Shown: positions 7,602 to 60,290 of the stretch, piece after piece | Position numbering within the stretch: the stretch's first letter is position 1 | Layout: each line of letters starts with the position of its first letter | Origin: a virus | Lineage: Duplodnaviria; Heunggongvirae; Uroviricota; Caudoviricetes | Direction: 5' to 3' (one strand) | Virus record (IMG/VR): IMGVR_UViG_3300024333_000003 | DNA: 64,000 bases | Translations under genes and position numbers: made by a program | The notes under the pieces: generated by a model | What the model saw: only the letters and a program-made list of their open reading frames with translations | What the model was told of the DNA's origin: nothing | The model's database searches: none

Positions 7602-8221
7602 TTGATGAATGTAAATATAAGTGGTGAATTAACCATAACCGATTACACAGAAGACGAGGCACACCAGATAAAAGCGAGCCTTGTGACCGAAAATCCAACC
7701 TGGGTAACGGCTATGAGTATGAACAAAAGTCTGTGGGGGATCGAACCAAAGCTTCGATTTTACACAGAAGCAAACAATACAATAACCGCCCCCGTTGGTT
7801 TCCTTTCGTCATTGAAGATAATAAATCCTAATTTACAGATTGATGATAATCGCTATTATAGCAAAACTCCTATACAAATAGAATTTACCGGGGAGTTACG
7901 AGATTATCAAAAAACTGCAGTAGATGTATTAAGTAATACAACAAACGGGGTTTTATGCTCTATCACGGCTTCAGGAAAAACCGTTATAGCCTGTGCGTTA
8001 CTTGCAAAACTAAAACAACCTACATTGATACTGGTAGATACTATAGAACTTGCGCATCAATTTATTGCGCGATTAAAACAGTTCACCTCAGTAAAGAATA
8101 TAGGAAAAATCGGCGCGGGCGAAAGAAAAATAAAACCAATAACTGTAGGGCTATTACAAAGCGTAAAAAAAATTGATCAATCAGAATTAAATAAATTCGG
8201 AATGATAATATGCGATGAGGT
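7602..8221 (+). CDS. SF2 DEAD/DEAH-box helicase, exon 1 (ends inside motif II DEV|H)
   Basis: Walker A-like TASGKTVIACAL and motif II ...IICDEV. The ORF as tracked runs on into intron sequence (…LTRSTYYV*). Confidence 0.6.
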
Positions 8222-9227
8222 ATTGACAAGGTCCACATATTACGTATAATAACTTATGAAAAATAAAATTAAGATATTATATAAAAGTGGGTTGTCGGCT
8301 TATCAAATAATGCAAAAACTACACATTGCTTCAAAAGAATTAGTATACAATGTTATACATGAAGAAAAATTAACTAGGGACTACGAAGAATGCAGACACC
8401 CTGGTTTGAATAGTCGTTATTTTAAAAATATAGATACAGAAGAAAAAGCGTATATACTTGGATTAATATTCGCCGACGGTTGTGTTAGAAAAAATCGCCC
8501 AGGCATGACCTTAGCACTACATCCGAATGATCTGTACATGTTGCGACGGATTAAAGATATTTTAGGAACCAAGGCAAAGATTCAAATATCAAAACAACCT
8601 TTAGCGGTGTATTATATAAATAATAAACAAATGAGATTAGACGTCATAGCTAAAGGGTGCTTGCCACAAAAATCTCTACGAGGTGGAAAACCCAAAAATA
8701 TTCCTATAAAATACACACATCATTTTATTAGGGGTATATTTGATGGTGATGGTTCGATATATATAAGAAAAGTTCCTCATCTTAGATACTGTTTTGACAT
8801 ATCTGGCAATATCGATGTTGTTTCTTGGTGCCATAAAAGATTAAAACTTTATACTAAGATAACAAAACACCGCTCAATATTTAGATTAGAGACGACTAAT
8901 TTAATTGAAGTTGTTAGAATATTTAATTATTTATATAAAGACAGTACAATTTTTCTAAAGAGAAAAAAAGCATTATTTGAAAAAGCTTGTGCCGCACTTG
9001 ATCGTAAGATCAAAGGTGTAAATCAAGGAAAAACGGTAAAAACCCGTGATGGGCAATACCGTGCTAAACGCAAGGATAGCAAACAGGCCCTGCGCAGTGT
9101 AGAGCATAGGAATTGAATAAATATAATATTCCCAAGAGTCCTTGACATCCTTATAGGATGAAAATATATGCCGAGCTACAAAGTAATTTGTAGAAATTGA
9201 GATAACAACCTCAATGATAACAAAATG
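8222..9227 (+). mobile_element. putative self-splicing (group I-type) intron carrying a LAGLIDADG homing endonuclease
   Basis: Joining gt(8220-8221)+a(9228) restores codon GTA, giving ...ICDEV|HIVPAKTYAEVISKIPAKYKYGLSATPER (motifs II and III). 5' exon ends in U, intron ends in G (9227). An in-frame TGA sits immediately before exon 2. Confidence 0.55.
8256..9116 (+). CDS. LAGLIDADG homing endonuclease (intron-encoded)
   Basis: Two LAGLIDADG motifs: ILGLIFADGCV and IRGIFDGDGSI. Confidence 0.8.
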   Translation: MKNKIKILYKSGLSAYQIMQKLHIASKELVYNVIHEEKLTRDYEECRHPGLNSRYFKNIDTEEKAYILGLIFADGCVRKNRPGMTLALHPNDLYMLRRIKDILGTKAKIQISKQPLAVYYINNKQMRLDVIAKGCLPQKSLRGGKPKNIPIKYTHHFIRGIFDGDGSIYIRKVPHLRYCFDISGNIDVVSWCHKRLKLYTKITKHRSIFRLETTNLIEVVRIFNYLYKDSTIFLKRKKALFEKACAALDRKIKGVNQGKTVKTRDGQYRAKRKDSKQALRSVEHRN

Positions 9228-9924
9228 ACACATCGTACCAGCAAAAACATACGCTGAAGTTATTTCAAAGATACCAGCAAAATATAAATATGGATTATCA
9301 GCCACACCAGAACGAGCTGATGGTCTTACTAAAGTAATATTCTGGTTAACCGGCCCATTGGTACATCAGGTTCCAGATGCCGCTGTTGCAGATAGAATTG
9401 TAAAACCTGTATATGAGTATATAAAAACTTCATATACGTATCCATTATTTGATACGTCAGAATATGGTATCATGATAACGGATATGGGTACTAATGACAT
9501 AAGAAATAAATTAATAGTTGACACCGTAAATAAATATAAAACACAACAATGTGTTCTATTGTGTCATAGACAAGAACATGCTCAGAGACTGGGTGCGTTA
9601 CTACCGGACTCCGTAGTTTTATTATCCAGTGTAAAGAAAAAAGATCGCGCCGCTATTATGCAGCAACTTGAAAGCGGTAAAAAGCGTATTGTTGTTACTA
9701 CCTGGCAATTGTTTCATAAAGGCATCGATCTGAAGGAGCTTGAGATCTTATTTATATGCGCACCAACACGAAGTAAAGTGTGGTTAAAACAAAGCGCCGG
9801 CAGACTAATGCGAGTTTCAAATAAGATAAAAAAGAATCCAGTCATTATTGATTTTGCGGATGTAAATATAGATTTACTAAAATTCCAATGGTATGCAAGA
9901 AAGAGAGTATTTACACAACTATGA
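9228..9924 (+). CDS. SF2 helicase, exon 2 (motif III LSATPER plus helicase C-terminal domain)
   Basis: Frame open from 9229 with no stops. Contains GLSATPER and C-terminal helicase motifs (VVTTWQLFHKGIDL, QSAGRLMR). Confidence 0.6.
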
Positions 9925-10116: not shown

Positions 10117-10560
10117 ATGGTTGTGTCGATAAATAAAGCAGATAACGAGGCACAATTGCGGATATTACGAACACCAGCTACTCGTGGTGAAGTGGGCCCA
10201 GCGGCCTTGTTGGCAGTAGATTTAATAGACACCGCTAAGAACTATGAAATATGTATGGGGCTGGCAAGTAATCAAATCTGGACAAAAGAAAATGAGCCCA
10301 TACCGCATGTATTTGTAGTAAATATTTCTGATAATTGGAAAGTATTTATAAATGCAACGGCAAAAAGATCGGGTAAATACTTCTCGTTTGAAGAAGGATG
10401 TATGTCAAAACCCGGGTATAAGAAAAGATGTATTCGTCGAGAAATCGTTACCGTATCATATATGGATGAGGAAGGTACTCCACACGTTGATAAATTTGTC
10501 GGTATGCCGGCAATTATTATACAACATGAGTTGGATCATATGACCGGAAAATTAATTTAA
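10117..10560 (+). CDS. def: peptide deformylase
   Basis: GLASNQIW (GxGxAAxQ-like), EGCMS (EGCLS) and QHELDH (HExxH) motifs. Confidence 0.8.
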   Translation: MVVSINKADNEAQLRILRTPATRGEVGPAALLAVDLIDTAKNYEICMGLASNQIWTKENEPIPHVFVVNISDNWKVFINATAKRSGKYFSFEEGCMSKPGYKKRCIRREIVTVSYMDEEGTPHVDKFVGMPAIIIQHELDHMTGKLI

Positions 10561-11780: not shown

Positions 11781-12848
11781 ATGGATAACAACTTAATCTT
11801 TGCTATTGAAAAACTAGGGGCCACGATCTACTTATTTGGTGAATGTGTTTGGGCAACAGCATTAAAAATAAAAGTGCAGTATTATAAGTTAGCTATAATT
11901 GGAGTAACCCGCGAACAGGTAATTCCATTGTTAGATAACTATACATTGCACAGAACAAAACCAACACTGCAGATAAGTGACGGTGACACAACATATGAAT
12001 TGTATTTTTTGAATAGTATAGATAGTGTACCATTTGATCCTATATCGATAAACAATGCTATTCTCAGTCTGGATGGCAAGGTATTTCGCGCCGATGATTT
12101 AAAGAATAAACTCATTCGTGCCAATACCTCCACATTTCTCGATTACCCCGAAGAGTTATTACGGATATGTCGCATTGCTGCGCAAACCTCTTTTGCCGTA
12201 GATGTCCCAACGTGGGTAACAATGTACGAACATTCACGATTGATCAAGAATGTAGTAAAGAGCAACCCAGCATATATTGGAAAACAATTGCAACAAATAA
12301 TTATGTCAAAAAATCCGGGGCATGGTTTTCGTTTGATGTTAGAGACCAACGTACTACAATATATTTTTCCAGAGTTAGCACGTTGTAACAATATTCGTCA
12401 AACACGTCGGGGCGAAGGCATCAATGTATTTGAACACATATTGTTGGCTATAAATGCGGCAGCACTTGAAGAAGAAATCAGATGGACTATGTTATTTCAT
12501 GATATGGCAAAACCAACTACTATGGATATTACTTCCGATGGTAAAATGCATTTTTTCAAACACGAATTTGTAGGCGCCGAGCTCGCTGTAACATACATGA
12601 CAAAATATAAATTACCGCCGTCTCTAATACAAACTGTAAAGATATTAATAGAGAATCATATGTTTGACGCGGACCCGAAGTTAACCGTAAAGGGCGTGCG
12701 TCGTCTAATTAAAAGAGTCGGCAAAGAAAACATATATCAACTTATAAAAGTGCGAGAAGCGGATAGACGTGGTACCATGGTTCCACCGTCAAATGATAAG
12801 ATAGAATTGTTAAAAACCAAAATCGAAAAAGAATTATCAAATGTTTAA
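11781..12848 (+). CDS. CCA-adding-enzyme-like protein with degenerate nucleotidyltransferase head and HD domain
   Basis: FLDYPEELLRICRIAAQTSF resembles the EDPLR(I/M)LRA(I/A)RF motif. HD motif MLFHDMAKP. The GGxVRD...DxD head motif is replaced by GECVWATAL. Confidence 0.5.
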   Translation: MDNNLIFAIEKLGATIYLFGECVWATALKIKVQYYKLAIIGVTREQVIPLLDNYTLHRTKPTLQISDGDTTYELYFLNSIDSVPFDPISINNAILSLDGKVFRADDLKNKLIRANTSTFLDYPEELLRICRIAAQTSFAVDVPTWVTMYEHSRLIKNVVKSNPAYIGKQLQQIIMSKNPGHGFRLMLETNVLQYIFPELARCNNIRQTRRGEGINVFEHILLAINAAALEEEIRWTMLFHDMAKPTTMDITSDGKMHFFKHEFVGAELAVTYMTKYKLPPSLIQTVKILIENHMFDADPKLTVKGVRRLIKRVGKENIYQLIKVREADRRGTMVPPSNDKIELLKTKIEKELSNV

Positions 12849-15086: not shown

Positions 15087-15755
15087 ATGGTTTTTCAAAA
15101 AGATACAACTGTTTTTAATAAACAATTAGCCTTCGACATCGAAACCATCCCTACGCGGGATGTTGTGCCCGATGAACTAGAAGAACTGATAACACGTAAG
15201 ATAGAAAGGGCACAGAAGTCAAATCCACTGCTCAATGTTACAAGCGAACGCCGTAAAATTATGGCTACTGATCCTTTGTTAGGACAAATTATTTGTATAG
15301 GTATGTATTACTCTACAAGTGACACAAAAGTGGCACTCACCGATTCTTCTGAAAAAGTTATTTTAGAAAAATTTTGGAAAGCAATTAGTGTATTTAATGG
15401 TGTTTTCGTTGGGTTTAACTCAGTTAGATTCGATGTCCCCTTTATTATTAGACGAAGTATGTTACATAGGATAATACCTACGAATTCGTCTTTTCTGCAA
15501 TATACACGCTTTGATCCATTTCCTCCTCATTTTGATGTAATGCTTCAATTGTCTGGACGAGACGGATTTTTAAGTTTAAAAAATGCATGCGCGGCATTCG
15601 GTATTCCATCACCAAAAAACGGCAAGATACACGCAGAAAATGTCGAACAAGCATATAATGAAGGAAAAATAAAAGAGATCGCCGAGTATTGTTTAGGCGA
15701 TGTTGTGGCTACTCACAAGTTATACGAAATTATAATCGATTATATAGTAAAATAA
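15087..15755 (+). CDS. DEDD-family 3'-5' exonuclease
   Basis: LAFDIETIP (Exo I) and YCLGDVVATHKLY (Exo III YxxxD). Confidence 0.6.
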   Translation: MVFQKDTTVFNKQLAFDIETIPTRDVVPDELEELITRKIERAQKSNPLLNVTSERRKIMATDPLLGQIICIGMYYSTSDTKVALTDSSEKVILEKFWKAISVFNGVFVGFNSVRFDVPFIIRRSMLHRIIPTNSSFLQYTRFDPFPPHFDVMLQLSGRDGFLSLKNACAAFGIPSPKNGKIHAENVEQAYNEGKIKEIAEYCLGDVVATHKLYEIIIDYIVK

Positions 15756-15758
15756 TTA

Positions 15759-16280
15759 ATGAGCTTATTTAAAAAACCAACTAAAGACGATAGACGGTTA
15801 AAGATGTATGTATTCGGCGAAAGCGGTGTTGGGAAAACGCTAACTTCGCTATACTTTCCATCTCCTGCCGTAGTCGACATCGAAGGTGGCACACATTTTT
15901 ATGTCGACAAATTTGAAATGACGCGATTACTTACAACGGATATAGATGAAATAAATCGAGCCGTCGATGAGTTAATCGAAGATCCCACAGGAATAAAAAC
16001 ATTTGTTTTGGACAGTATGACCGCATACTGGGACTTGTTGCAAGACAAACACCTAAAACGTCTAAGGGTGAAAAAGGCAAAGCCTGATTATACATTTCAA
16101 CCGATGGATTATCGGTTGCTTCAGGCTGATTTAAAATCCTTTATAAACAAGTTGTTAGCATTAGATCTTAATATCATTGTAACAGCTAAATCAAAAAATG
16201 AATATTCTGCAGAGAGCAGTGAATTCATGAAAATAATTGGTAAAAAACCAGACGGTCCAAAGGAAGTACCGTTGACATGA
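15759..16280 (+). CDS. P-loop ATPase (RecA-fold, Sak4-like annealing protein candidate)
   Basis: Walker A GESGVGKT and Walker B FVLDS. Confidence 0.5.
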   Translation: MSLFKKPTKDDRRLKMYVFGESGVGKTLTSLYFPSPAVVDIEGGTHFYVDKFEMTRLLTTDIDEINRAVDELIEDPTGIKTFVLDSMTAYWDLLQDKHLKRLRVKKAKPDYTFQPMDYRLLQADLKSFINKLLALDLNIIVTAKSKNEYSAESSEFMKIIGKKPDGPKEVPLT

Positions 16281-17391
16281 AAAGAAAATATACTGGTCCA
16301 ATTCGTTTTTAAAATAAATATGTTTATCTTGAAATTACAGATAAAAACACGAATATTGGATAAAATAGCGGCCTATGTAGAGAAATCTTATAGGAAAATC
16401 GGGAATAACGGAGAAACTCCTTAACCAGTAAGGACAATTCCGTAGCGGAAACGCTCGAACGACTGACAACCGACTTCAAGTATGAAGATGATACAGTCTG
16501 CTCTATAGATATATATAAAACTATAGCTAACACATGGATTTATTTGACATAGTCCTTGAACTTATGTTTGGTCCAAATGATACCAGAATAGCAAAAGTTA
16601 TAAAAGATCGTACTAACACATTACCAAAAGAGTTTGAATACACATATCAAGAGTTAACGAAGTACTTGGATATGAAAGAACTAGAGCGTGAACCTGTTGC
16701 ACTCCGTGCGGTACAACGCTTGAATCAAGTTTCTAACCGTACCGTTGCTATAACACTAGATGGTCAAACCGTGATGACCGGCGGTATAACAGTAGAAACT
16801 TTCACAAAACTTCGTGACATTATTCCACATTTTGAGGAACGGGAATTAAAAGATAAATTACAGGAGGACTATTATGTTGGTTCTCTACTCGATCTGAAAG
16901 AAGACGAGGCAAAGCAGTTCCTTACTGATCTACAAGCAAAACTAGGTATTAATAATTAATGAGCTATAACTTACGCGATGTTAAGGGATCGAGTTTTGAT
17001 CCTATTCCAGAAGGCCGTTATAACCTAACGGTGGATAAAGCAGAGTTAACAACTGCAAAAGATAGTGGTAATCCTATGATCAAAGCGACTTTGAAGATTC
17101 TCGATGGAGACTTTAAAGGTCGTTTAGTATGGGATAATTTTGTATTAACAGATAAATCCCTGTGGAAGTTAAAGGGAATTCTAGAAGCAATTGGTAGTAA
17201 TATTGCTGAATCTGTAAATGCTACTGAACAAGATATAGCCAATGCATTACAAGGTGCAAAGGTGAATGCTTGGTTAGAAATTCGTATTGGTCCAAACGAT
17301 CAAACATCAAATACAGTAAAAAACTACGCCAAAATAACCGAAGAAACGGTTGCAAGCAAAAAGAACAGTCTTTTAGCTTAATAGCTTTATT

Positions 17392-17413
17392 GGCCTCGGT
17401 AAATATCGAGGCC
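17392..17413 (+). terminator. hairpin terminator candidate
   Basis: GGCCTCG-gtaaatat-CGAGGCC immediately after the ORF ending at 17381. Confidence 0.35.
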
Positions 17414-17423
17414 TTCATGTATT

Positions 17424-18146
17424 ATGGATAAATTCATACAAAGAGCTTTAACACGTTCACAAATAAATGAGATACTACAATTTTTGTCGTATCATTTAGG
17501 GTATACGCCGCCGCAAAAGTTTACTATAATTTTTGCTAAGACTCCAGAACAATTCGCAAAGTTGCATGGAACAGAGCCGGGCCAAACGACGGTAGAGGAA
17601 ATAAATTCAGCTGTACCTACGTTACCGGCAATATTTGATCATGGAACGAATACGGCGGTATTTCAAGGATTTTCTTACGTTCAAGGTCTTGCGGTACCGC
17701 ATTTCATAATACCTATGGCCACAATCTTACATGAATGTATACACTTTTACCAGTATTCCGCCGGAAATTTTGGGTCGTGGCAAACAATGTACGAAGGAAC
17801 CAGCGAAATATTGGCTTGCTTCTTTGCCGATGATTACCAGTTCGATTACAAGAACGAAGTCATATATAGCTTTAACTTGGCAATGATCATCAACGATAAT
17901 AATTTCTGGGAAGCAATGAACTGGATAAAACGCTACACTGTTCATAGTGATAAAAATGGATTCGTAGCACGTAGTATTTTACAGACACCCACATTTGCAA
18001 AATTTAGACCGACTAATTTGATGCGGTGGTTAGATGCTAATACGTTACATAAGATTAAAAACGAAGAGATACGAAATTTATTTACAAAGTACAATCTTTC
18101 GTATATTAAAAAACAATTACATAAGAATCGTCAACTAATTTCATGA
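17424..18146 (+). CDS. HExxH zinc metallopeptidase-like protein
   Basis: LHECIHF (HExxH). Confidence 0.4.
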   Translation: MDKFIQRALTRSQINEILQFLSYHLGYTPPQKFTIIFAKTPEQFAKLHGTEPGQTTVEEINSAVPTLPAIFDHGTNTAVFQGFSYVQGLAVPHFIIPMATILHECIHFYQYSAGNFGSWQTMYEGTSEILACFFADDYQFDYKNEVIYSFNLAMIINDNNFWEAMNWIKRYTVHSDKNGFVARSILQTPTFAKFRPTNLMRWLDANTLHKIKNEEIRNLFTKYNLSYIKKQLHKNRQLIS

Positions 18147-24796: not shown

Positions 24797-24871
24797 CGAC
24801 GCGTAGCTAAATTGGTGACGGCAGCCGCCTTATACACGGAAGATATGTGGGTTCAAGTCCTACCGCGTCGA
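24797..24871 (+). tRNA. tRNA, anticodon unresolved (loop contains UAU)
   Basis: Perfect 7-bp acceptor CGACGCG/CGCGUCG and T-arm GUGGG-UUCAAGU-CCUAC. D and anticodon arms irregular by eye. Confidence 0.5.
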
Positions 24872-24889
24872 CTAAAAAATACAATAAAT

Positions 24890-28294: not shown

Positions 28295-28903
28295 ATGAAA
28301 CAATATCCAGAAATTCCTAAAGATGTGCCATCTTTTAATGCACACGTGTTCGATAAAATAGATGGTAGTAACTTACGTTTTGAATACAGCAAAAAACGTG
28401 GTTGGTTTAAATTCGGTACGCGCACAAGATTATTTGACCAATCAGATGACGTATTTGGATCAGCAGTTCCTTTATTTCACGAAACGTTGTTATTCCCGCT
28501 TACCCAAATTATGATTGATAACCGATTTGAACATGCGGTAGTGTTTGCAGAATTTGCTGGGAAAAGAAGTTTTGCTGGACAACATGAAAAAGATGATGTG
28601 AAGACACTGACGGTGTTTGATGTGGCCTTAGATAAAAAAGGATTCGTATCTCCTAAGATGTTCATAAAATTATTTGACGGTAAAGTACTGATACCAAAAT
28701 ATCTTGGATATTATCGCTGGAATAAAGAATTTACCACTAAGATCTATTATAATGAAATAGAAGGAATCACTTTTGAAGGAGTCGTCGGCAAAGATGGGGA
28801 GGGGACGCACTACAATATGGCAAAAGCTAAGACATTGCAGTGGTTAAATAAAGTACATGCTTTATATTCAGATAATCTAGCAGATAAGATAATAAATAGT
28901 TAA
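28295..28903 (+). CDS. RNA-ligase-like nucleotidyltransferase (KxDGxN motif I)
   Basis: DKIDGSN (motif I), EGVVGK (motif IV), KAK (motif V). Confidence 0.55.
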   Translation: MKQYPEIPKDVPSFNAHVFDKIDGSNLRFEYSKKRGWFKFGTRTRLFDQSDDVFGSAVPLFHETLLFPLTQIMIDNRFEHAVVFAEFAGKRSFAGQHEKDDVKTLTVFDVALDKKGFVSPKMFIKLFDGKVLIPKYLGYYRWNKEFTTKIYYNEIEGITFEGVVGKDGEGTHYNMAKAKTLQWLNKVHALYSDNLADKIINS

Positions 28904-29463
28904 TGGAACAACTAATCTGCGGTAAAAACCATAAGAAGATCGGGGTAACTCCTTCGATCGTACTAATTAATCCTAAATATCCAAGAAACGTTGGCGCAAT
29001 AATACGTGCTGCATCTTGTTTTGGTATAGCCCAGGTTTGGTACACCGGCAATCGTGTATCAATGACACCAACAAAAGATTATCGTTTACCAAGAGAAGAA
29101 CGGATGAAGGGTTATAAAGAAGTTACACTCACACAATTTGATTATCCGTTTGATATGTTTGAAAAAGCAATTCCTATTGCAATTGAAGTGCGAGAAAACT
29201 CTGAAAACTTATTAGACTTTGAACATCCATATAATGCAGTGTATGTTTTTGGTCCAGAAGATGGTGGTATTGAACGAGTACATATGCAACACTGCCATCG
29301 AATTGTCACTATACCCACGAAACATTGCACAAACTTGGCAGCGGCTGTTTATCTTACTTTATATGATAGATATGCCAAACGAGTACGTGCAGGAAAAGAT
29401 CAAATATTCAATATAGGAAAAAATGAACAACGAGGTTATGAAGAAGGGGCTGAATTTGGATGA
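28903..29463 (+). CDS. SpoU/TrmH-family RNA 2'-O-methyltransferase
   Basis: NVGAIIRAASCFG and YVFGPEDGGI SPOUT motifs. Confidence 0.7.
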   Translation: MEQLICGKNHKKIGVTPSIVLINPKYPRNVGAIIRAASCFGIAQVWYTGNRVSMTPTKDYRLPREERMKGYKEVTLTQFDYPFDMFEKAIPIAIEVRENSENLLDFEHPYNAVYVFGPEDGGIERVHMQHCHRIVTIPTKHCTNLAAAVYLTLYDRYAKRVRAGKDQIFNIGKNEQRGYEEGAEFG

Positions 29464-29945
29464 TACCAAAAGAAATTGAATATAAATTTTTGTTCTTTGA
29501 TGAGAATGTTGTGCTTCCACAGCTGGCTCAAGCTAGTAAATCAATAAAATTAATGCAGGGTTATACAATAGATGGGATTAGGTTTACTCAACGAGTACAT
29601 GAAGATAATACAAAAGATTATAAAATAAATTATAAATTAGGAATGGGTGTAGTTCGGGACGAAGCACAATGTCAAATAGATGAAAATGTGTTTATTGCAA
29701 TTTGGCCCTTAACAATTGGTCGACGTGTTTACAAAACACGTTATCACTTTCCACTGGAATCTGGTCTTATATTAGAATTAGATGTATATCAACATTCGAG
29801 GAAATGGCCATTGATCACTGGAGAAATAGAGTTTGCTACGGAAGAGGAAGCAGATAATTACTCAGACACTGAATTGGGGCGCTTCGGCAGTTTTTTATAT
29901 GTAACTGGCGACTCTGAGTATCTGAATATAAACTTAGCCTGTTAA
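29460..29945 (+). CDS. CYTH-domain (triphosphate tunnel) protein
   Basis: N-terminal EIEYKF (EIERKF-type) signature. Confidence 0.45.
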   Translation: MIPKEIEYKFLFFDENVVLPQLAQASKSIKLMQGYTIDGIRFTQRVHEDNTKDYKINYKLGMGVVRDEAQCQIDENVFIAIWPLTIGRRVYKTRYHFPLESGLILELDVYQHSRKWPLITGEIEFATEEEADNYSDTELGRFGSFLYVTGDSEYLNINLAC

Positions 29946-29953
29946 TAAATTAT

Positions 29954-30027
29954 GCTCTCGTACATCAATTGGACAGAGCTGCGCCTTCTAAGCGTGAGCG
30001 TTGCGAGTTCGAGTCTCGCCGAGAGTA
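29954..30027 (+). tRNA. tRNA-Arg (UCU), irregular D-arm
   Basis: Anticodon arm UGCGC-CUUCUAA-GCGUG, T-arm GCGAG-UUCGAGU-CUCGC. Confidence 0.55.
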
Positions 30028-30070
30028 CAAGATGCCCCTTAGCGTATTTTCATTCATAAGGAGAAAATAT

Positions 30071-30523
30071 ATGCTACCTATTTTAAAAAGAGACTTTGCC
30101 TCTGATATAGAATATTGGCTTAATGATATTAGAAAAGCCTTTGAGGAGGCAGCAAATTTGGAACTATGTTTTGAACCTATTGGTCGAGCATTTCCAAAAG
30201 TAAACATTTCCGAAACAGACAAGGAATTTGTCATAGAAGCGGCTTTGCCTGGTTATGGAAAAGATCAAATTAAATTAGAAGTTACAAATGATAAAGGAAG
30301 AAAGTTTCTTACTGTAAAAGGTGAGAAATCTGGGAAGGCTTCTAAGAAAGATACACGTTATCTTGCTCAAGAAGTACATTTTTCCTCGTTTCATCGTTCC
30401 TGGGCGCTTCCAGCCGATGTAGATGTAGATGCCATCAAAACTAATATGGATAGTGGAGTTCTTACTATCGAACTTCCAAAAACAAGTCCAAGCATCGACA
30501 AAAAAGAAATAACTATTAGCTAA
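30071..30523 (+). CDS. Hsp20/alpha-crystallin small heat-shock protein
   Basis: Alpha-crystallin domain FVIEAALPGYGKDQIKLEV...GVLTIELPK. Start ATG 30071 preceded by AAGGAG; the track ORF start overlaps the tRNA. Confidence 0.7.
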   Translation: MLPILKRDFASDIEYWLNDIRKAFEEAANLELCFEPIGRAFPKVNISETDKEFVIEAALPGYGKDQIKLEVTNDKGRKFLTVKGEKSGKASKKDTRYLAQEVHFSSFHRSWALPADVDVDAIKTNMDSGVLTIELPKTSPSIDKKEITIS

Positions 30524-30546
30524 CTACGCTCAAGGGGCATCACTTT

Positions 30547-31158
30547 ATGACAATACATATAATTGGTGATATACATGGATTATACACAGAAATATATTTG
30601 CCTATGATCAAGAAGATTGATGGACCTTCAATTCAATTAGGCGATATGGCCCATGGATTCCCAAATACATTTTTACCTGAGTTGCCGTCTCAACATAAAT
30701 TTATCCGCGGTAATCATGATAATCCAGAACTATGTAAAACACATCCTAATTATCTTGGAGAATTTGGATATATCGAAGAATGGGATATATTCTATCTAGG
30801 GGGTGGTTGGTCGACAGATTGGGACAGTAGAATTCCTGGTGTATCTTGGTGGTATGATGAGGAACTGTCAATGCGACAATGTTATGAAGCCTTAAAATTA
30901 TACGAGGTGTCAAAACCACGAATAGTGCTTTCACATGATTGTCCGGAAATAGCAAAGATAAGTATGCTGATATATTTATACGGAAAACATGCGTATAATC
31001 AACCTTCCAGAACAAATCAATTATTGCAAGCCATGTTTGAACTTCATAATCCATCTTATTGGTGTTTCGGTCATTTCCATCATACACGAAAATTTATAAT
31101 TCACAAAACTGCCTTTCAGTGTTTAGGAAAGGCACAATACACAACAATAGAGGTTTAA
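30547..31158 (+). CDS. calcineurin-like metallophosphoesterase
   Basis: GDIHG, GD...GNHD motifs. Confidence 0.65.
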   Translation: MTIHIIGDIHGLYTEIYLPMIKKIDGPSIQLGDMAHGFPNTFLPELPSQHKFIRGNHDNPELCKTHPNYLGEFGYIEEWDIFYLGGGWSTDWDSRIPGVSWWYDEELSMRQCYEALKLYEVSKPRIVLSHDCPEIAKISMLIYLYGKHAYNQPSRTNQLLQAMFELHNPSYWCFGHFHHTRKFIIHKTAFQCLGKAQYTTIEV

Positions 31159-50629: not shown

Positions 50630-51190
50630 GATTATGTGGCAGAGGCGACTCTACCGCACTTGCGTTTAATGTATTAATTTAGTATATTAATTTGGGCTCG
50701 ACAGGAATCGATTGAATGAGATGTAGTATAAATGCATAGCGTCAGTGAACCGATGACGTAAAATCCGTTTAAACAATAAGTGCAGAAGAAAAATCTGACA
50801 TGACTTTTGAACAGGCTTTGGCACTAGTCGAAGTACCTGTAGCCGTAATGGCCTAATCGCTGACAAGAGAACTCGATAGCAAGGCCCCAATTGCTATGAG
50901 TGCGATAAACGGGGATGTAGGCCACTTGTCCGAATACAAGTAAGTCCTAAGTATGTAGTTGTAGCAGACGACCGACTAAAAATACAACTAACTATGTGAA
51001 TGAATTTTTATTAAATCCATGCAAGACCGGGGTTCGACTTAGTATTAGGTCGCTTATATAGAAATATATATGACAAAAGAAAGCTCAAACGGCGAAACCC
51101 CTGCTAATAGCGAGGTAACACCGTCGGGTATGTAAAGAAATTTAACAGCTCGCTATCGACTTATAGAACTCTAAAGTATAAAAACTATGA
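50630..51190. ncRNA. ~560-nt ORF-free structured region (candidate ribozyme/ncRNA)
   Basis: Stops in all frames and many local hairpins. AAUUGC and CCGACUAAAAAU / UAGGUCGC motifs loosely resemble group I P and R/S elements. Confidence 0.3.
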
Positions 51191-51641: not shown

Positions 51642-51784
51642 AATATACTAAAAGATAAGGGAATAGTCAAGTCTAAAATGAAAATTTTAGAGTTACTGCC
51701 CCGCGAGTCCACCAAGGAGGTTTCTTTTCGTAGTACGTTATACTTCCTCCGTTCAAAATAAATAAAGGAAAACGTACCAAGACT

Positions 51785-51857
51785 GCGGGGTACGTTGGAA
51801 ATGGTCCCCACGAGAGTCTCATAAGCTCTGCATGCAGGTTCAAGTCCTGTCCCCGCT
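51785..51857 (+). tRNA. tRNA-Met (CAU)
   Basis: Anticodon arm AGAGU-CUCAUAA-GCUCU; acceptor GCGGGG/CCCCGC. Confidence 0.65.
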
Positions 51858-52565
51858 ACAAATCGGCCGGATCGAGATTGTTATCATAGATTCGACTTCT
51901 ATTTCTCCCGCCAAGAAAAAATTTGGGAGAAAGCGCAATGGACGCACTCAGTCTCACAACATTGCCGATCTATTTTTAAGGAAAATAAATGACTGCGTTA
52001 TTCGTTATTTTCACTATAATTGTTTCAGTGCTTATTGATCTGGCTGTTCAAGCACATCGTAAACATAAATCATTAAAAACAAAGCCAGAGATTTATTTAC
52101 ATGATCCAACACTCACTATGTGTGATGGCGGACAATTAAAGGAACAAGATATGAAATAGGGCTATATCAATACCTCGTAAACTCACCAGTTTATAATATT
52201 AATAACCGCGACAATAAGTCGCTATATATTTTTACTAAAACTGGAGTTTACAATGACAAAAGAACAATACAATCAACTAAAATCCGAGCTTAAAATCTTA
52301 GCTCAATTTCTTCATTACGACAACTATAATTCACGTGCCTACCAATCACAAAATGCCGGTGGCAAAAAGAAACCAAAAGAAATACCAGAACAATTAGAAA
52401 AGCAATTTAAGGAATTAAATATAAGTCCTTGGAGAGCTCACTATGAGTATAGACATAAACACATATTTATGTCTTTACAACGTGGTAAAAAACGTGAACA
52501 AATCGAAAGACCAAGACAAGGTAACGAACCCGATGAAAATTACATCAAAAAACTTGTGGAGCAGT

Positions 52566-52949: not shown

Positions 52950-53700
52950 TGCCCATTAACCTTATTGGTTAGCTATGAACAATCATAGTACTGTTCGCCA
53001 GAACTGCATTCCAGAATGATTTAGGTTAATTGCGAAAGCCCCTGGAACAGGGGAGTCCTACGCATACTTACCCGTCGTAGGTGAGCCTGTCTAATTATGG
53101 GTTAGACCCAGGGTCGATCCAAAAGGTAAGCTCGATCGAAATTAACTATTGTCTGCGTGGCCGAGAACGAAATAAGCACTAGTCTCTAAAACTAGTTACA
53201 CGGGGTCGTTCCCCGTCGCAGACACTTATTCCTCTGTGGTGAAATGAAAAGAGATGTATATTTGTTACGTATTAATATACATTACTAAGTCACTAGATTG
53301 AATTAGTAGGTGACAGCATCGAGTTACCAGTATAGACTGTTCTTTATGGTCAAGTTCAGAGCAAGTGTATTGGAAGAATAACTAGGATGAAGCGATTAAA
53401 CCAATTGTCATGCGACGAACGTTTAGTTGCGTAGCGGCTGAATATTCAATTGAAAATTAGAATGGGATCTTTACTACTCCCTGTCGAACGCTTACAAACG
53501 GAACTGACTGTCAGTAGACTAAAAGTAATGCTGCAGGTTTGAGTCCTGCCAGAGGGATAAATTTTTATCCGGACGGCGTATTATTCTCTCGACGCCTAAT
53601 AAATATGGGGAGATTATCAGTCCTGTCATAAACAATTCCGCTCAATGAGCACCGGAGCCATTTGATAGGACTTTTGCATTATATATGGCTCCGCCACGAT
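52950..53700 (+). ncRNA. group I intron-like ribozyme core in an ORF-free region
   Basis: P4-P6-like UUAAUUGCGAAAGCCCCUGGAACAGGGGAGUCCUACGCAUAC (~53024-53065). R-like CAGUAGACUAAAAG (~53515-53528) and S-like AUUAUCAGUCC (~53609-53619) can form P7. Confidence 0.45.
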
Positions 53701-58909: not shown

Positions 58910-59548
58910 ATGAAACGCATATTTATTTTTTTATTTTTATTGTTATTTATATCTATCGGACAAGCGCAATTTAATTCTGGTGCTTGTTTCAAATCACAGT
59001 ATGTAATAAAAGGTATACAGCTGTGTGCAACACCTACAATTGGAGGCTATCTTGAATATTCTACCAAAAACTTTATCGCCAATATTACCGCAGATGCAAG
59101 TATATCTGAACGCTTCTCCGAAAATACTGTTACATTCGCTTGGAGTTTGGTCAATGACGGGTCAATTTGGCTTTGCGACTATTACTATCCGTATCCCGCC
59201 AATAAATATGGGAACTTTGCCAATAAAAATCTGGGCGCACATTTTATTGAAATCGGAGGAAGGTACAATTATGCGGGGTTTGAATTTATGGCGACAGGTA
59301 ATGTTTACAACGACACTACACACAGCAAATACTTACAAATCAACCGAATTATCCGATTACCTGCCGAATCCGGCCAATTATCCTTCTTTATAGGTGCCGC
59401 CATAGGAAAAGCCTTTTTCTATAATACTGAAAAAGGATTGCATGTTATAAATGTTGGAATGAGCCATCAATATAAAAAACTTGTTGTTACATATTATGTT
59501 AATCCAACTGCCGAAGAAAGCAGTGTTATTGTTACTTACAATCTATAG
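58910..59548 (+). CDS. secreted/outer-membrane beta-barrel-like protein
   Basis: Signal peptide MKRIFIFLFLLLFISIGQA, alternating aromatic/hydrophilic strands, C-terminal ...VTYNL. Confidence 0.4.
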   Translation: MKRIFIFLFLLLFISIGQAQFNSGACFKSQYVIKGIQLCATPTIGGYLEYSTKNFIANITADASISERFSENTVTFAWSLVNDGSIWLCDYYYPYPANKYGNFANKNLGAHFIEIGGRYNYAGFEFMATGNVYNDTTHSKYLQINRIIRLPAESGQLSFFIGAAIGKAFFYNTEKGLHVINVGMSHQYKKLVVTYYVNPTAEESSVIVTYNL

Positions 59549-59562
59549 TTTATATATTTATT

Positions 59563-59644
59563 AGAGGTATGTGGGTAACTGGGCATCCCAGCAGAATCAT
59601 AATCTGCCGCGAAAGCCTTGAGGGTTCAAGTCCCTCTACCTCTA
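59563..59644 (+). tRNA. class II (long variable arm) tRNA with CAU anticodon, A73
   Basis: Acceptor AGAGGUA/UACCUCU, anticodon arm GCAGA-AUCAUAA-UCUGC, 12-nt variable arm CGCGAAAGCCUU, T-arm GAGGG-UUCAAGU-CCCUC. Confidence 0.55.
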
Positions 59645-59660
59645 CGAAAGGAGAAATCAT

Positions 59661-60290
59661 ATGTCAATAATGGACAAAATTTTAGTATTAAAGTTAAATA
59701 GATCTTGGATGCCCGTAGGATTTTCTACGATCGCTAAGGCTGTTGTAGATTTATGTGCTGACATAAACTGTTATGCACTTGACATTCAATATGAACTTGT
59801 TGAAGGTCAACCAGATCTCGATAAGCCTATAAGTATGAATCCTGTTACATGGGATAATTGGATACAATTACCCGTACGACCATGGGACATACCACTGCAT
59901 TCACCAAGTATTACTGTGCGGGCACCAACGGTTCTTATAGCAAGACATTTTGACGCCATGCCTATTATTGCATATGGTACTTATCCTACCACACGTCAGA
60001 TCCAAGAACGAGATGAATTTACTGATCAATACACCGGAAGGAAACTCGCTCCCGCTGAGATGTCGATAGATCATGTTGTGCCAGTATCGAAAGGTGGTAA
60101 ACATACTTGGGACAATATGGTATTAACACATAAAGATATTAACTTTAAAAAAGGTAATAGATTAAATAAAGAAGTAGGTTTAAAGTTAATAAAACAACCT
60201 GCCAAGCCCAGGCCTGTTGCTATAAGTTCTTTGATTCGTGAAGTACGACATGCGGATTGGAAGCATTTTTTGTTGCACAAAATAAAGTAA
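59661..60290 (+). CDS. HNH homing endonuclease
   Basis: IDHVVPVSKGGKHTWDNMVLTHKDINFKKGN (HNH). Confidence 0.7.
   Translation: MSIMDKILVLKLNRSWMPVGFSTIAKAVVDLCADINCYALDIQYELVEGQPDLDKPISMNPVTWDNWIQLPVRPWDIPLHSPSITVRAPTVLIARHFDAMPIIAYGTYPTTRQIQERDEFTDQYTGRKLAPAEMSIDHVVPVSKGGKHTWDNMVLTHKDINFKKGNRLNKEVGLKLIKQPAKPRPVAISSLIREVRHADWKHFLLHKIK

Follow-up and report, generated by a model that had tools for sequence, protein, structure and literature searches.

We analysed a window of 64,000 nucleotides of viral DNA, in which a tRNA gene with a CAU anticodon, here called tRNA(CAU), lies between two protein-coding genes. The genes and the parts of the tRNA, numbered by tRNA position where letters carry a number, are as follows.

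58910-59548, + strand: gene for a 212-aa protein upstream of tRNA(CAU) (ORF list; synteny)
59563-59644, + strand: tRNA(CAU), tRNA positions 1-73 (ARAGORN, Rfam RF00005, family model R1, syntenic orthologues)
59563-59569, + strand: 5' strand of the acceptor stem, AGAGGUA, pairing with UACCUCU at 59637-59643 (sequence)
59570-59572, + strand: UGU linker between the acceptor and D stems, 3 nt against the standard 2 (hand parse)
59573-59590, + strand: D arm with a GGG/CCC stem and the loop AACUGGGCA, which holds G18G19, followed by A26 (sequence, R1 alignment, family covariation)
59591-59607, + strand: anticodon arm GCAGA-AUCAUAA-UCUGC (sequence; Rfam alignment)
59608-59619, + strand: variable region CGCGAAAGCCUU, 12 nt, with a 2-bp GC/GC stem, a GAAA tetraloop and then CUU (sequence)
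59620-59636, + strand: T arm GAGGG-UUCAAGU-CCCUC (sequence; T stem 100% paired across both family and clade)
59661-60290, + strand: HNH endonuclease gene, starting 16 nt past tRNA(CAU) (Pfam HNH_4, HNH and HNH_5; synteny)

ARAGORN called the gene as tRNA-Met(cat) at 59563-59645. No CCA is encoded, with CGA following directly after A73 (59644). The acceptor stem has seven pairs (A1-U72, G2-C71, A3-U70, G4-C69, G5-C68, U6-A67 and A7-U66). The ARAGORN drawing of the D/T junction was distorted and the D stem was therefore re-parsed as three base pairs (G10-C25, G11-C24 and G12-C23), the second of them a purine:pyrimidine pair, with U13 facing U22. The 3-nt linker of this parse is backed by the placement of A14 and A21 and by covariation of positions 15 and 48, the last U of the variable region being position 48 and forming the Levitt pair with A15. 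A 4-bp D stem lacking nucleotide 26 was rejected, since position 14 would then be U, which disrupts the pattern of A14, A21 and the Levitt pair, as was an 8/4 arrangement of the acceptor and T stems, in which the eighth acceptor pair would set U opposite C. The CAU anticodon, at 59598-59600, is surrounded by A32, U33, A37 and A38, in agreement with the Rfam alignment. In initiator tRNAs the successive pairs 29-41, 30-40 and 31-39 are all G-C; here only G30-C40 is a G-C pair, flanked by A29-U41 and A31-U39.

The acceptor stem, A73, the anticodon arm and the 12-nt variable region with its GC-GAAA-GC hairpin were all found where a sequence-only reading of this DNA had placed them, and the combination of a long variable arm with a CAU anticodon that it pointed out was borne out. 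According to textbooks, a long variable arm is found in bacteria only in tRNA-Leu, -Ser, -Tyr and -Sec. The variable region has class II architecture (more than 10 nt, with a stem-loop), but CAU is not an anticodon of a class II isotype (Leu, Ser or Tyr, or Sec), and the rule that a long arm means Leu, Ser or Tyr fails to predict this tRNA.

RF00005 scored tRNA(CAU) at 27.8 bits in a 2.5-kb search and at 29.2 bits in a 131-nt search, relative to a gathering score of 29. These scores are low because the UGU linker and the long variable region depart from the standard cloverleaf. The alignment to the model was nonetheless full-length, and the anticodon, whose displacement by a covariance model was looked for, stayed at CAU; pseudogene status, the other outcome that the earlier reading had considered, is argued against by conservation and covariation. 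The gene was also identical across independent assemblies, and Logan contigs of 0.2-1 Mb contain the phage genome. The locus is thus a genuine phage tRNA gene with a CAU anticodon.

Nucleotide searches of deposited phages with the 6-kb flank and with tRNA(CAU) alone gave no match, and neither an exact 27-mer nor the 647-aa neighbour had a match in IMG/VR; relatives came from a large protein database only. The long-arm CAU tRNA is kept at the syntenic site in the related huge phages L017, L018, L020 and L334, whereas in L019 a normal-sized CAU tRNA occupies this site. In the relatives the tRNA is bracketed by the 212-aa gene, for which we found no Pfam match, and by the HNH gene, which has the same location in all related phages and whose GGAG ribosome-binding site abuts the 3' end of tRNA(CAU). 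One promoter-like site lies just upstream of the tRNA, in a scan whose total of sites was below chance expectation. In the clade alignment, 97.7% of cells were paired and compensatory double changes were found at 13 of 22 pairs. All seven acceptor pairs were maintained across six orthologues, double changes occurred at five of these pairs, and 1-72 was always paired (A-U in three, G-C in two and C-G in one). The L018 orthologue carries C33 instead of the near-universal U33, and tRNA(CAU) departs from the consensus of its wider family in A3-U70, A32 and the single G-C pair of the lower anticodon stem, so that an altered or relaxed function is possible.

That family is large. IMG/VR holds at least 83 distinct long-arm CAU sequences, nearly all in phage tRNA arrays, at more than 116 loci. 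The genomes of 185,579 species contained 27 copies, 24 of them within tRNA arrays and none lone. The family is phage-specific. A covariance model (R1) built from 44 long-arm CAU tRNAs, with the window copy and that of L018 left out, scored tRNA(CAU) at 75.8 bits (E 5e-17), while the next best tRNA of the window reached 48.7 bits and its Leu tRNAs 37-49 bits. Conversely, a model built from phage Leu tRNAs (R2) gave tRNA(CAU) 44.3 bits, on a par with ordinary Lys and Pro tRNAs, versus 72.6-78.7 bits for the five Leu tRNAs of the window. The Leu-type body put forward in the sequence-only reading finds no support in this separation of about 30 bits each way. The features that define the family, a 3-nt linker, a variable hairpin of the form N-GC...GC-CUY and CAU, are all present, and tRNA(CAU) belongs to the phage long-arm CAU family and not to the Leu tRNAs.

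With the 3-nt linker included, the family cloverleaf was paired in 95.8% of cells, compared with 72.4% in shuffles, with double changes at 20 of 24 pairs and a covarying D stem; positions 15 and 48 covaried as well (G-C in 56 members, A-U in 8). Among 81 distinct members, 38 had a mismatch at 1-72 and 26 a weak A/U pair there, G2-C71 was found in 69, C3-G70 in 60, A73 in 76 and a purine:pyrimidine pair at 11:24 in 58, and the pairs at 29-41, 30-40 and 31-39 included three G-C pairs in 12 and two in 37. Since the mismatched or weak 1-72, G2-C71, C3-G70, A73 and purine11:pyrimidine24 are formyltransferase determinants (PMC9976931), the family most likely descends from a bacterial-type initiator tRNA-Met. 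Among the normal-sized relatives that share the D loop of the family, 59 of 71 show a mismatch at 1-72. The CAU anticodon was invariant among all recovered members, two of the three search patterns having demanded it.

The 3-nt linker was present in 38 of 43 long-arm tRNAs and in 16 of 71 normal-sized relatives (Fisher p = 4.6e-12). A GNRA loop caps the variable hairpin in 45 of the 81 members. Two invariant G-C pairs of the variable arm in one alignment (A2) were imposed by the search pattern and are no evidence; we re-tested the arm unconstrained. In a scan with the variable region left free the N-GC...GC-CUY form recurred, and when unconstrained by the search the variable stems of related members were 2-5 bp long and covaried. 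These comparisons indicate two coupled insertions in the family, a nucleotide in the acceptor/D linker and a small, usually GNRA-capped variable hairpin, which most likely gave its members a class II-like shape although their bodies are not of the Leu, Ser or Tyr type. A full-text literature search found no published description of long-arm CAU phage tRNAs, and the family is apparently undescribed so far; in deposited phages, a typical member matched only normal-sized initiator-like tRNAs of two huge phages.

Two further tRNAs of the window bear on the function of tRNA(CAU).

51784-51858, + strand: second CAU tRNA, normal-sized (R1 46.4 bits; sequence; structure-based finder)
24797-24872, + strand: tRNA-Ile(UAU), which already covers AUA (ARAGORN)

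The second CAU tRNA, missed by ARAGORN, combines a U1xU72 mismatch with G2-C71, C3-G70, G4-C69, G5-C68 and A73, and has a 4-nt variable loop and an unusually long D loop. The structure-based finder detected U1xU72 counterparts in L017 (1144-1226) and L018 (2366-2454), and no third CAU tRNA in the window. This tRNA is likely the initiator partner of tRNA(CAU). Across the family, the cross-tabulation of 1-72 state against companion CAU tRNAs was limited by loci of mostly a few kb.

We consider it probable that tRNA(CAU) is an initiator-descended long-arm tRNA that is charged with methionine and serves here as an elongator, while the tRNA at 51784-51858 initiates; both its amino acid and its use in elongation are what we infer for tRNA(CAU) from the sequences. 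The CAU, A73 and closed 1-72 of an elongator tRNA-Met are all there, and methionylation itself is a prediction. The transcript would be excised from a polycistronic RNA and, because the gene encodes no CCA, would receive it post-transcriptionally. Host MetRS would then charge it with methionine by way of the CAU anticodon and A73. Class I synthetases approach the tRNA from the side where the variable region faces solvent, and MetRS should therefore tolerate the extra arm. When a tRNA-Val body is given CAU, E. coli MetRS charges it no less well than native tRNA-Met (PMC9976931), which makes ordinary Met decoding the default expectation. The charged tRNA would enter the ribosomal A site with EF-Tu and decode internal AUG codons, and the tRNA with U1xU72 would take initiation. 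This A-site use is the most likely one because 1-72 is always closed in the clade and the G-C triplet has been lost; one change that closes 1-72 turns an initiator into a working elongator (PMC9976931). In many other phages, the long-arm tRNA with a mismatched 1-72 would probably itself be the initiator.

The descent of the family also suggests a different division of labour, in which tRNA(CAU) would be charged with methionine, formylated despite its weak A1-U72 and used at start codons, alone or alongside elongation, as the phage's own supply. The family overall is initiator-like, and tRNA(CAU) keeps, besides the weak 1-72 pair, the minor formylation determinants A73, G2-C71, G4-C69 and G11-C24. 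A peptide deformylase is among the proteins encoded by the phage (81.8 bits), and the C33 of L018 would be better tolerated by a tRNA confined to the P site; some eukaryotic initiators carry C33. We nonetheless regard such use as unlikely, as the mismatched 1-72 that is the major formyltransferase determinant (PMC9976931) is replaced by A1-U72, and the pairing in all six clade orthologues, with covariation to G-C and C-G, points to selection on pairing itself. Moreover, A3-U70 stands in place of C3-G70, one of the three anticodon-stem G-C pairs is left, and the same genomes hold the separate CAU tRNA with the conserved U1xU72. A CAU anticodon could instead belong to a tRNA-Ile2, with C34 modified to lysidine by a host or phage TilS, charging by IleRS and reading of AUA. 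The U36-A37-A38 context and the paired 1-72 suit tRNA-Ile2 and a Met elongator equally, and unmodified tRNA-Ile2 resembles tRNA-Met for sequence-based tools (PMC9976931). With 36.9 occurrences per 1000 codons in the window, compared with 19.9 for AUG, AUA is the commonest Ile codon of the phage, which would thus benefit from another tRNA that reads AUA. The lysidine reading is improbable, however, because tRNA-Ile(UAU) is present in the window and in 27 of the 113 arrays that contain a long-arm CAU tRNA, and because of the initiator descent of the family, whose mismatched 1-72 and initiator-type acceptor are foreign to tRNA-Ile2. A search of the window for a TilS gene found none. The 38-tRNA island, which holds both Ile(UAU) and Ile(GAU), would have no elongator tRNA-Met if the long-arm tRNA did not serve Met elongation. 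E. coli TilS uses C-G pairs at 4-69 and 5-68, a host-specific feature; both are G-C in tRNA(CAU), although the E. coli rule may not be that of the host.

The sequence-only reading had raised mis-decoding, through a Leu- or Tyr-type class II body that would bring the wrong amino acid to AUG or AUA. Such a body would account for the long variable region, A73, A15-U48, G18G19 and the 3-bp D stem with 13-22 unpaired, and bacterial LeuRS is blind to the anticodon (PMC9976931). Furthermore, tRNA(CAU) is 71% identical to tRNA-Leu(CAA) of the window, the two sharing the CAGA/UCUG core and resembling each other in the variable arm. Given this identity and three of the four E. coli LeuRS elements (A73, A15-U48 and G18G19, but C rather than A at 20a; PMC9976931), in a set that may not be that of the host, some leucylation is possible. 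Recent derivation from tRNA-Leu(CAA), prompted by the shared core, the CGCGAAAGC arm and the identity, was rejected because of the reciprocal covariance-model test and the syntenic orthologues with typical family sequence. The same R2 score of 44.3 bits, the absence of A20a and a purine11:pyrimidine24 pair where Leu tRNAs have U11-A24 argue against a Leu body, and Tyr identity requires A73 with U35 and G34 (PMC9976931), whereas tRNA(CAU) has C34 and A35, which argues against the Tyr-type alternative. In addition, CAU is a dominant MetRS determinant (PMC9976931), the syntenic orthologues form a gradient towards typical initiator-like members of the family and, at the L019 site, a CAU tRNA of normal size, and substitution of Leu for Met across the proteome would be costly. 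Mis-decoding by a Leu or Tyr body is thus extremely improbable, as the acceptor, the 11:24 pair and the nearest normal-sized relatives are all of the initiator tRNA-Met type. Hardly more probable is that tRNA(CAU) does not decode at all and is instead a decoy or sponge for a host tRNA-targeting nuclease, a homing target of the HNH endonuclease or a decaying copy. The HNH gene always adjoins it, the Rfam score is borderline and L018 has C33; some defence nucleases are known to cleave variable loops or type II tRNAs (PMC13096335, PMC13462974). Yet the four stems, the Levitt pair, G18G19, the T loop, A73 and CAU are kept with compensatory changes in divergent phages, and the anticodon was invariant in recovered members even if largely demanded by the search; these are the needs of a translating tRNA and more than a decoy would require.

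Seen against known tRNAs, the Met elongator that we favour is a composite. With initiator tRNA-fMet, including the normal-sized ones of Prevotella phage Lak-A2 (L022, 3000-3072) and uncultured phage LR756504 (L023, 2991-3064), it shares CAU, A73, G2-C71, G4-C69, G5-C68 and purine11:pyrimidine24, and the family at large adds a 1-72 that is mismatched or weakly paired, C3-G70 and the D loop AGUUGGUA, with the bottom of the anticodon stem frequently containing two or three G-C pairs. The family differs in its variable region of 12-14 nt with a hairpin (5 nt in initiators) and in its 3-nt rather than 2-nt linker, and the window copy alone differs further in its paired A1-U72, A3-U70 and sole G30-C40. 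Elongator tRNA-Met has the same CAU, A73, closed 1-72, U36-A37 (a t6A-type context) and 7/5 acceptor/T stems, but neither a long variable arm nor an additional nucleotide in the linker, and the ancestry of tRNA(CAU) is of initiator type, unlike the G1-C72/GCUC-GAGC type of the normal-sized CAU tRNAs in other arrays. CAU, A37, A38, A73 and the paired 1-72 are common to tRNA-Ile2, from which initiator-type ancestry, the long arm, G-C instead of C-G at 4-69 and 5-68, and Ile(UAU) in the same island set it apart. The stem-loop variable region above 10 nt and the 3-bp D stem with 13-22 unpaired recall class II Leu, Ser and Tyr tRNAs, and A73 and A15-U48 recall tRNA-Leu in particular; the minimal arm (2-3 bp), CAU, the failure of the Leu model, the initiator-like acceptor and 11:24 pair and the extra linker nucleotide do not. 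Nematode nev-tRNAs, attributed to Hamashima et al. 2012, reportedly have a Leu-type body and are leucylated. Like these and the allo-tRNAs of Mukai et al., tRNA(CAU) joins a long arm to an anticodon outside Leu, Ser and Tyr, but it has no Leu-type body. Allo-tRNAs are of Ser identity, have acceptor and T stems arranged 8/4 or 9/3, and occur in phages and tRNA clusters (PMC5389517), whereas tRNA(CAU) is 7/5, with a 7-bp acceptor and a 5-bp T stem in place of the 12-bp 8/4 or 9/3 arrangement, and has no Ser-type body. In contrast to both, it would be expected to decode its own codon correctly.

At least 83 distinct phage tRNAs predicted to serve Met decoding or initiation thus carry a long arm and a coupled linker nucleotide. 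If so, this architecture is tolerated by MetRS and probably also by the formyltransferase, by IF2/IF3 or EF-Tu and by the ribosome. It would then offer nature's own starting point for the design of orthogonal or tagged initiator tRNAs, and it raises the idea that phages structurally mark their own tRNAs. Since generic tRNA models score such tRNAs at or below threshold and ARAGORN missed one, phage tRNA censuses probably undercount or mislabel them. More speculatively, and with considerable doubt on our part, phages, notably huge ones, may systematically rebuild class I tRNAs as class II-like by inserting a variable-arm hairpin that acts as a phage mark. The Met/initiator family would then be the largest example of such insertion, supplying the phage with a private initiator/elongator pair, and the arm would be a handle that sets phage tRNAs apart from those of the host. 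It could help to evade host tRNA-cleaving defences or a phage-encoded nuclease directed at host tRNAs, or alternatively allow selective recognition by phage enzymes.

A conserved tRNA(CUA) had prompted us to consider TAG recoding, which was rejected, TAG making up 3 of 52 stops; none of the three TAG-terminated ORFs of the window showed readthrough to a long frame. The arrays with long-arm CAU tRNAs also contain a long-arm tRNA-Ile(UAU), the variable loop of which has a conserved YAGAU motif, as well as long-arm Asn, Lys, Thr and Trp tRNAs.

The tRNA at 59563-59644 on the plus strand reads AGAGGUA-UGU-GGGU-AACUGGGCA-UCCC-A-GCAGA-AUCAUAA-UCUGC-CGCGAAAGCCUU-GAGGG-UUCAAGU-CCCUC-UACCUCU-A. The sequence-only reading of a long-arm tRNA with a CAU anticodon at this position was borne out by the sequence, by ARAGORN, which labels it tRNA-Met(cat), and by the Rfam tRNA covariance model, which aligns with it end to end and places the anticodon at CAU. 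The Rfam score is low (27.8-29.2 bits; gathering score, 29) because a 3-nt linker between the acceptor and D stems, versus the standard 2 nt, and a 12-nt variable region with a GC-GAAA-GC hairpin depart from the standard cloverleaf. In the ARAGORN drawing the D/T junction is distorted.

The same reading had proposed a Leu- or Tyr-type body. An alignment of the long-arm tRNAs in the window first hinted at kinship with its tRNA-Leu(CAA), with 71% raw identity and a common CAGA/UCUG stem core and CGCGAAAGC arm, but this was overturned by two covariance models. Model R2, trained on 36 Leu tRNAs from other phage arrays, gave the window's five Leu tRNAs 72.6-78.7 bits and the CAU tRNA 44.3 bits, a score at best on a par with ordinary Lys or Pro tRNAs and lower than that of Tyr (59.5). 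Model R1, trained on 44 long-arm CAU tRNAs from other phages with the studied tRNA and its closest relative left out, gave the studied tRNA 75.8 bits and the window's Leu tRNAs 37-49. The body is thus not Leu-type. Nor did the Tyr-type body hold, since Tyr identity requires U35 (PMC9976931) and position 35 here is A.

We searched IMG/VR with a pattern made of the anticodon loop, the GCGAAAGC arm and the T loop. It matched 13 contigs, every match being an 81-85 nt tRNA(CAU) within a tRNA array, and relaxing the arm loop raised this to at least 119 loci, many of them on 100-450 kb contigs, with at least 83 distinct sequences. Among 81 parsed members, pair 1-72 was mismatched in 38 (UxU 29, CxA 5, AxA 2, others 2) and otherwise weak A/U (26), strong G/C (16) or G.U (1). 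Position 2-71 was G-C in 69/81, 3-70 was C-G in 60/81, A73 was present in 76/81, 11:24 was purine:pyrimidine in 58/81 and 30-40 was G-C in 63/81. The anticodon loop was CUCAUAA in 70/81, the linker 3 nt in 53/81, and a GNRA tetraloop capped the arm in 45/81. The formyltransferase determinants of bacterial initiator tRNA are a 1-72 mismatch, A73, G2-C71, C3-G70, G4-C69 and R11:Y24 (PMC9976931), and many members of this family carry them. Covariation supports the cloverleaf with a 3-nt linker: pairing held in 95.8% of cells, compared with 72.4% after shuffling and 40-53% with partners slid, 20 of 24 pairs had double changes, and only 1-72 was unpaired (23/44 sequences). The tertiary pair 15-48 also covaries, with 56 members having G-C and 8, the studied tRNA among them, A-U. 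Among deposited phages, the nearest matches were normal-sized initiator-like tRNAs of Prevotella phage Lak-A2 and the 636-kb uncultured phage LR756504. Across the genomes of 185,579 species the pattern matched just 27 such tRNAs, mostly in Bacteroidota assemblies; none stood alone and 24 lay in dense tRNA arrays, and the family is therefore phage-borne and no host's regular tRNA.

Because these patterns had fixed the arm's two G-C pairs, we rescanned for the family D loop, CUCAUAA and GGTTC and placed no constraint on the variable region. From all loci collected by then, 114 distinct tRNAs were read. A 5-nt variable loop was found in 71, of which 59 have a mismatched 1-72 and which are thus plainly phage initiator tRNAs, and a 12-19 nt variable region in 43, nearly all N-GC...GC-CUC. 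The four long-arm tRNAs in loci new to the rescan have different arm stems, which covary (GUC/GAC, CCC/GGG, GCAUC/GAUGU). The extra linker nucleotide accompanies the arm, occurring in 38/43 long-arm versus 16/71 normal-sized tRNAs (Fisher p = 4.6e-12).

The window (37% G+C) derives from a huge phage; genes identical to its own were found on assembled contigs of the 0.2-1 Mb class, and related contigs have genes for phage tail-sheath domains. The relevant features of the window are as follows.

23489-60996: tRNA island of 38 tRNAs, 37 from ARAGORN (23.4-61 kb) plus 51784-51858
10117-10560, 11781-12848 and 28295-31158, plus strand: translation and tRNA-maintenance gene set
50701-51040, plus strand: tmRNA-like gene (Rfam RF00023, 37.4 bits; gathering score, 47; E 9.5e-13)
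51784-51858, plus strand: second CAU tRNA, normal-sized, found by R1 and missed by ARAGORN
53151-53225, plus strand: amber-suppressor tRNA, anticodon CUA, labelled 'Pyl' by ARAGORN
59661-60290, plus strand: HNH endonuclease gene directly 3' of the studied tRNA

The island's tRNAs cover nearly all amino acids, but tRNA-Ala is missing. The 112 nt that separate a gene for 212 aa with no assigned function from the HNH gene contain the studied tRNA, whose 3' end abuts the ribosome-binding site of the HNH gene. The island ends just past it, as the next 10 kb downstream hold no further tRNAs. Homing endonucleases are described within other phage tRNA clusters, T4 SegB being one example (PMC13096335), and the HNH gene resembles these; it keeps its position in L017-L020 and L333-L335, contigs of related phages. 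Homing-endonuclease-like ORFs also interrupt split genes at 7602-9924 (plus strand) in the window, 15702-17771 in phage locus L001 and 14769-17888 in L018. Among these, a LAGLIDADG-like ORF divides the N-terminal part of a DEAD/ResIII helicase from its Helicase_C part, and the DNA polymerase A gene is broken into two or three parts, and in L018 an HNH_3 ORF lies within it. The maintenance set beside the island comprises peptide deformylase (81.8 bits), RNA ligase, SpoU methylase, a CCA-enzyme-like HD/RNA-binding protein and a metallophosphoesterase, which suggests functions in tRNA repair or maturation; the 64-kb window holds no aaRS, TilS or formyltransferase gene. ARAGORN did not call the tmRNA-like gene here, and it called tmRNAs with tag peptides in L017, L019, L020 and L021. 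The CUA tRNA is conserved across the clade (L017 2742-2815, L018 3243-3318, L020 2030-2103). Within the window we saw no TAG read-through ORFs, and TAG is a rare stop (3/52 ORFs).

A neighbouring 647-aa protein has 16 homologues (37-65% identity), and we compared eight of their contigs. L017-L020 and L334 keep the gene order around the tRNA, and L335 begins too near the site to show it; in L021 and L333 a CAU tRNA was not found at the syntenic site. A long-arm tRNA(CAU) occupies the site in L017 (GC-GUAAA-GC), L018 (GC-AAUUAA-GC), L020 (GC-UUCAU-GC) and L334 (GC-UUAG-GC), and the tRNA(CAU) of L019 has an ordinary 5-nt variable loop. Across six orthologues, 97.7% of cells were paired, with double changes in 13 of 22 pairs, and 1-72 was paired in all six and covaried (A-U three times, G-C twice, C-G once). 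The closest orthologue, L018 9119-9203, has C33 (loop ACCAUAA) where U33 is near-universal; all its stems are intact. The window's second CAU tRNA is initiator-like, with U1xU72, G2-C71, C3-G70, G4-C69, G5-C68, A73 and a GCGGGG acceptor stem; its 14-nt D loop is aberrant. It has U1xU72 counterparts in L017 and L018: the one at L017 1144-1226 follows the tmRNA directly, and the one at L018 2366-2454 has a variable arm of 20 nt. The clade therefore carries two initiator-derived CAU tRNAs, one keeping the mismatch and the other the pair.

MetRS identity rests on CAU, a tRNA-Val body with CAU being charged as well as native tRNA-Met (PMC9976931), and a closed 1-72 is reported to let an initiator work as an elongator (Seong and RajBhandary 1987, as cited in PMC9976931). 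On these grounds we think that host MetRS would methionylate the studied tRNA, which would then read internal AUG codons, with the tRNA at 51784-51858 presumably serving initiation. Met identity is probable, and an elongator role for this copy is slightly favoured. A structure-based finder gave no CAU tRNA in the window beyond these two, so that the island would have no elongator tRNA-Met without the studied one. In some other phages a long-arm tRNA with mismatched 1-72 lies beside a normal elongator-like CAU tRNA, and there the long-arm tRNA is probably the initiator; initiation or dual use in the window's phage is unlikely.

About equally doubtful is a lysidine-type AUA reader. AUA is the commonest Ile codon in the window (36.9 per 1000, versus 19.9 for AUG), but the window already has a tRNA-Ile(UAU), of 113 arrays that carry the family, 27 have such a tRNA too, and the studied tRNA is of Met descent. 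Mis-decoding by a Leu or Tyr tRNA is very improbable, for although three of four E. coli LeuRS elements are retained, the covariance models set its body apart from that of Leu tRNAs. A decoy or decaying copy would hardly have maintained its stems, tertiary pairs and anticodon, and we give this reading very little credence.

A full-text literature search turned up no Met or initiator tRNA described as having a long variable arm. The closest published types are distinct from it. Nematode nev-tRNAs have a Leu-type body. Allo-tRNAs have Ser identity and an acceptor branch arranged 8/4 or 9/3 (PMC5389517). Long-arm tRNAs for Ile(UAU), Asn, Lys, Thr and Trp occur in the same arrays as the family, a hint that phages may add arms to class I tRNAs more generally.

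L012 10083-10175, L030 7347-7440, L066 8888-8982 and 17 further phage loci: long-arm tRNA-Ile(UAU), 87-96 nt
L113 2690-2870, L123 1250-1433 and 4287-4372, L023 5173-5353, L019 1875-1958 and others: oversized tRNA-Lys, Asn, Thr, Trp and His, 82-93 nt

In the long-arm tRNA-Ile(UAU) the acceptor and T stems keep the standard 7/5 layout, the variable arm has 4-5 bp, and YAGAU is present in almost every arm loop. It looks like another long-arm type outside Leu, Ser and Tyr, and the conserved motif in the loop suggests an element that is specifically recognised. Among 53 long tRNAs other than Met, 40 read ANN codons; these are raw counts from a sample biased to arrays with CAU tRNAs.
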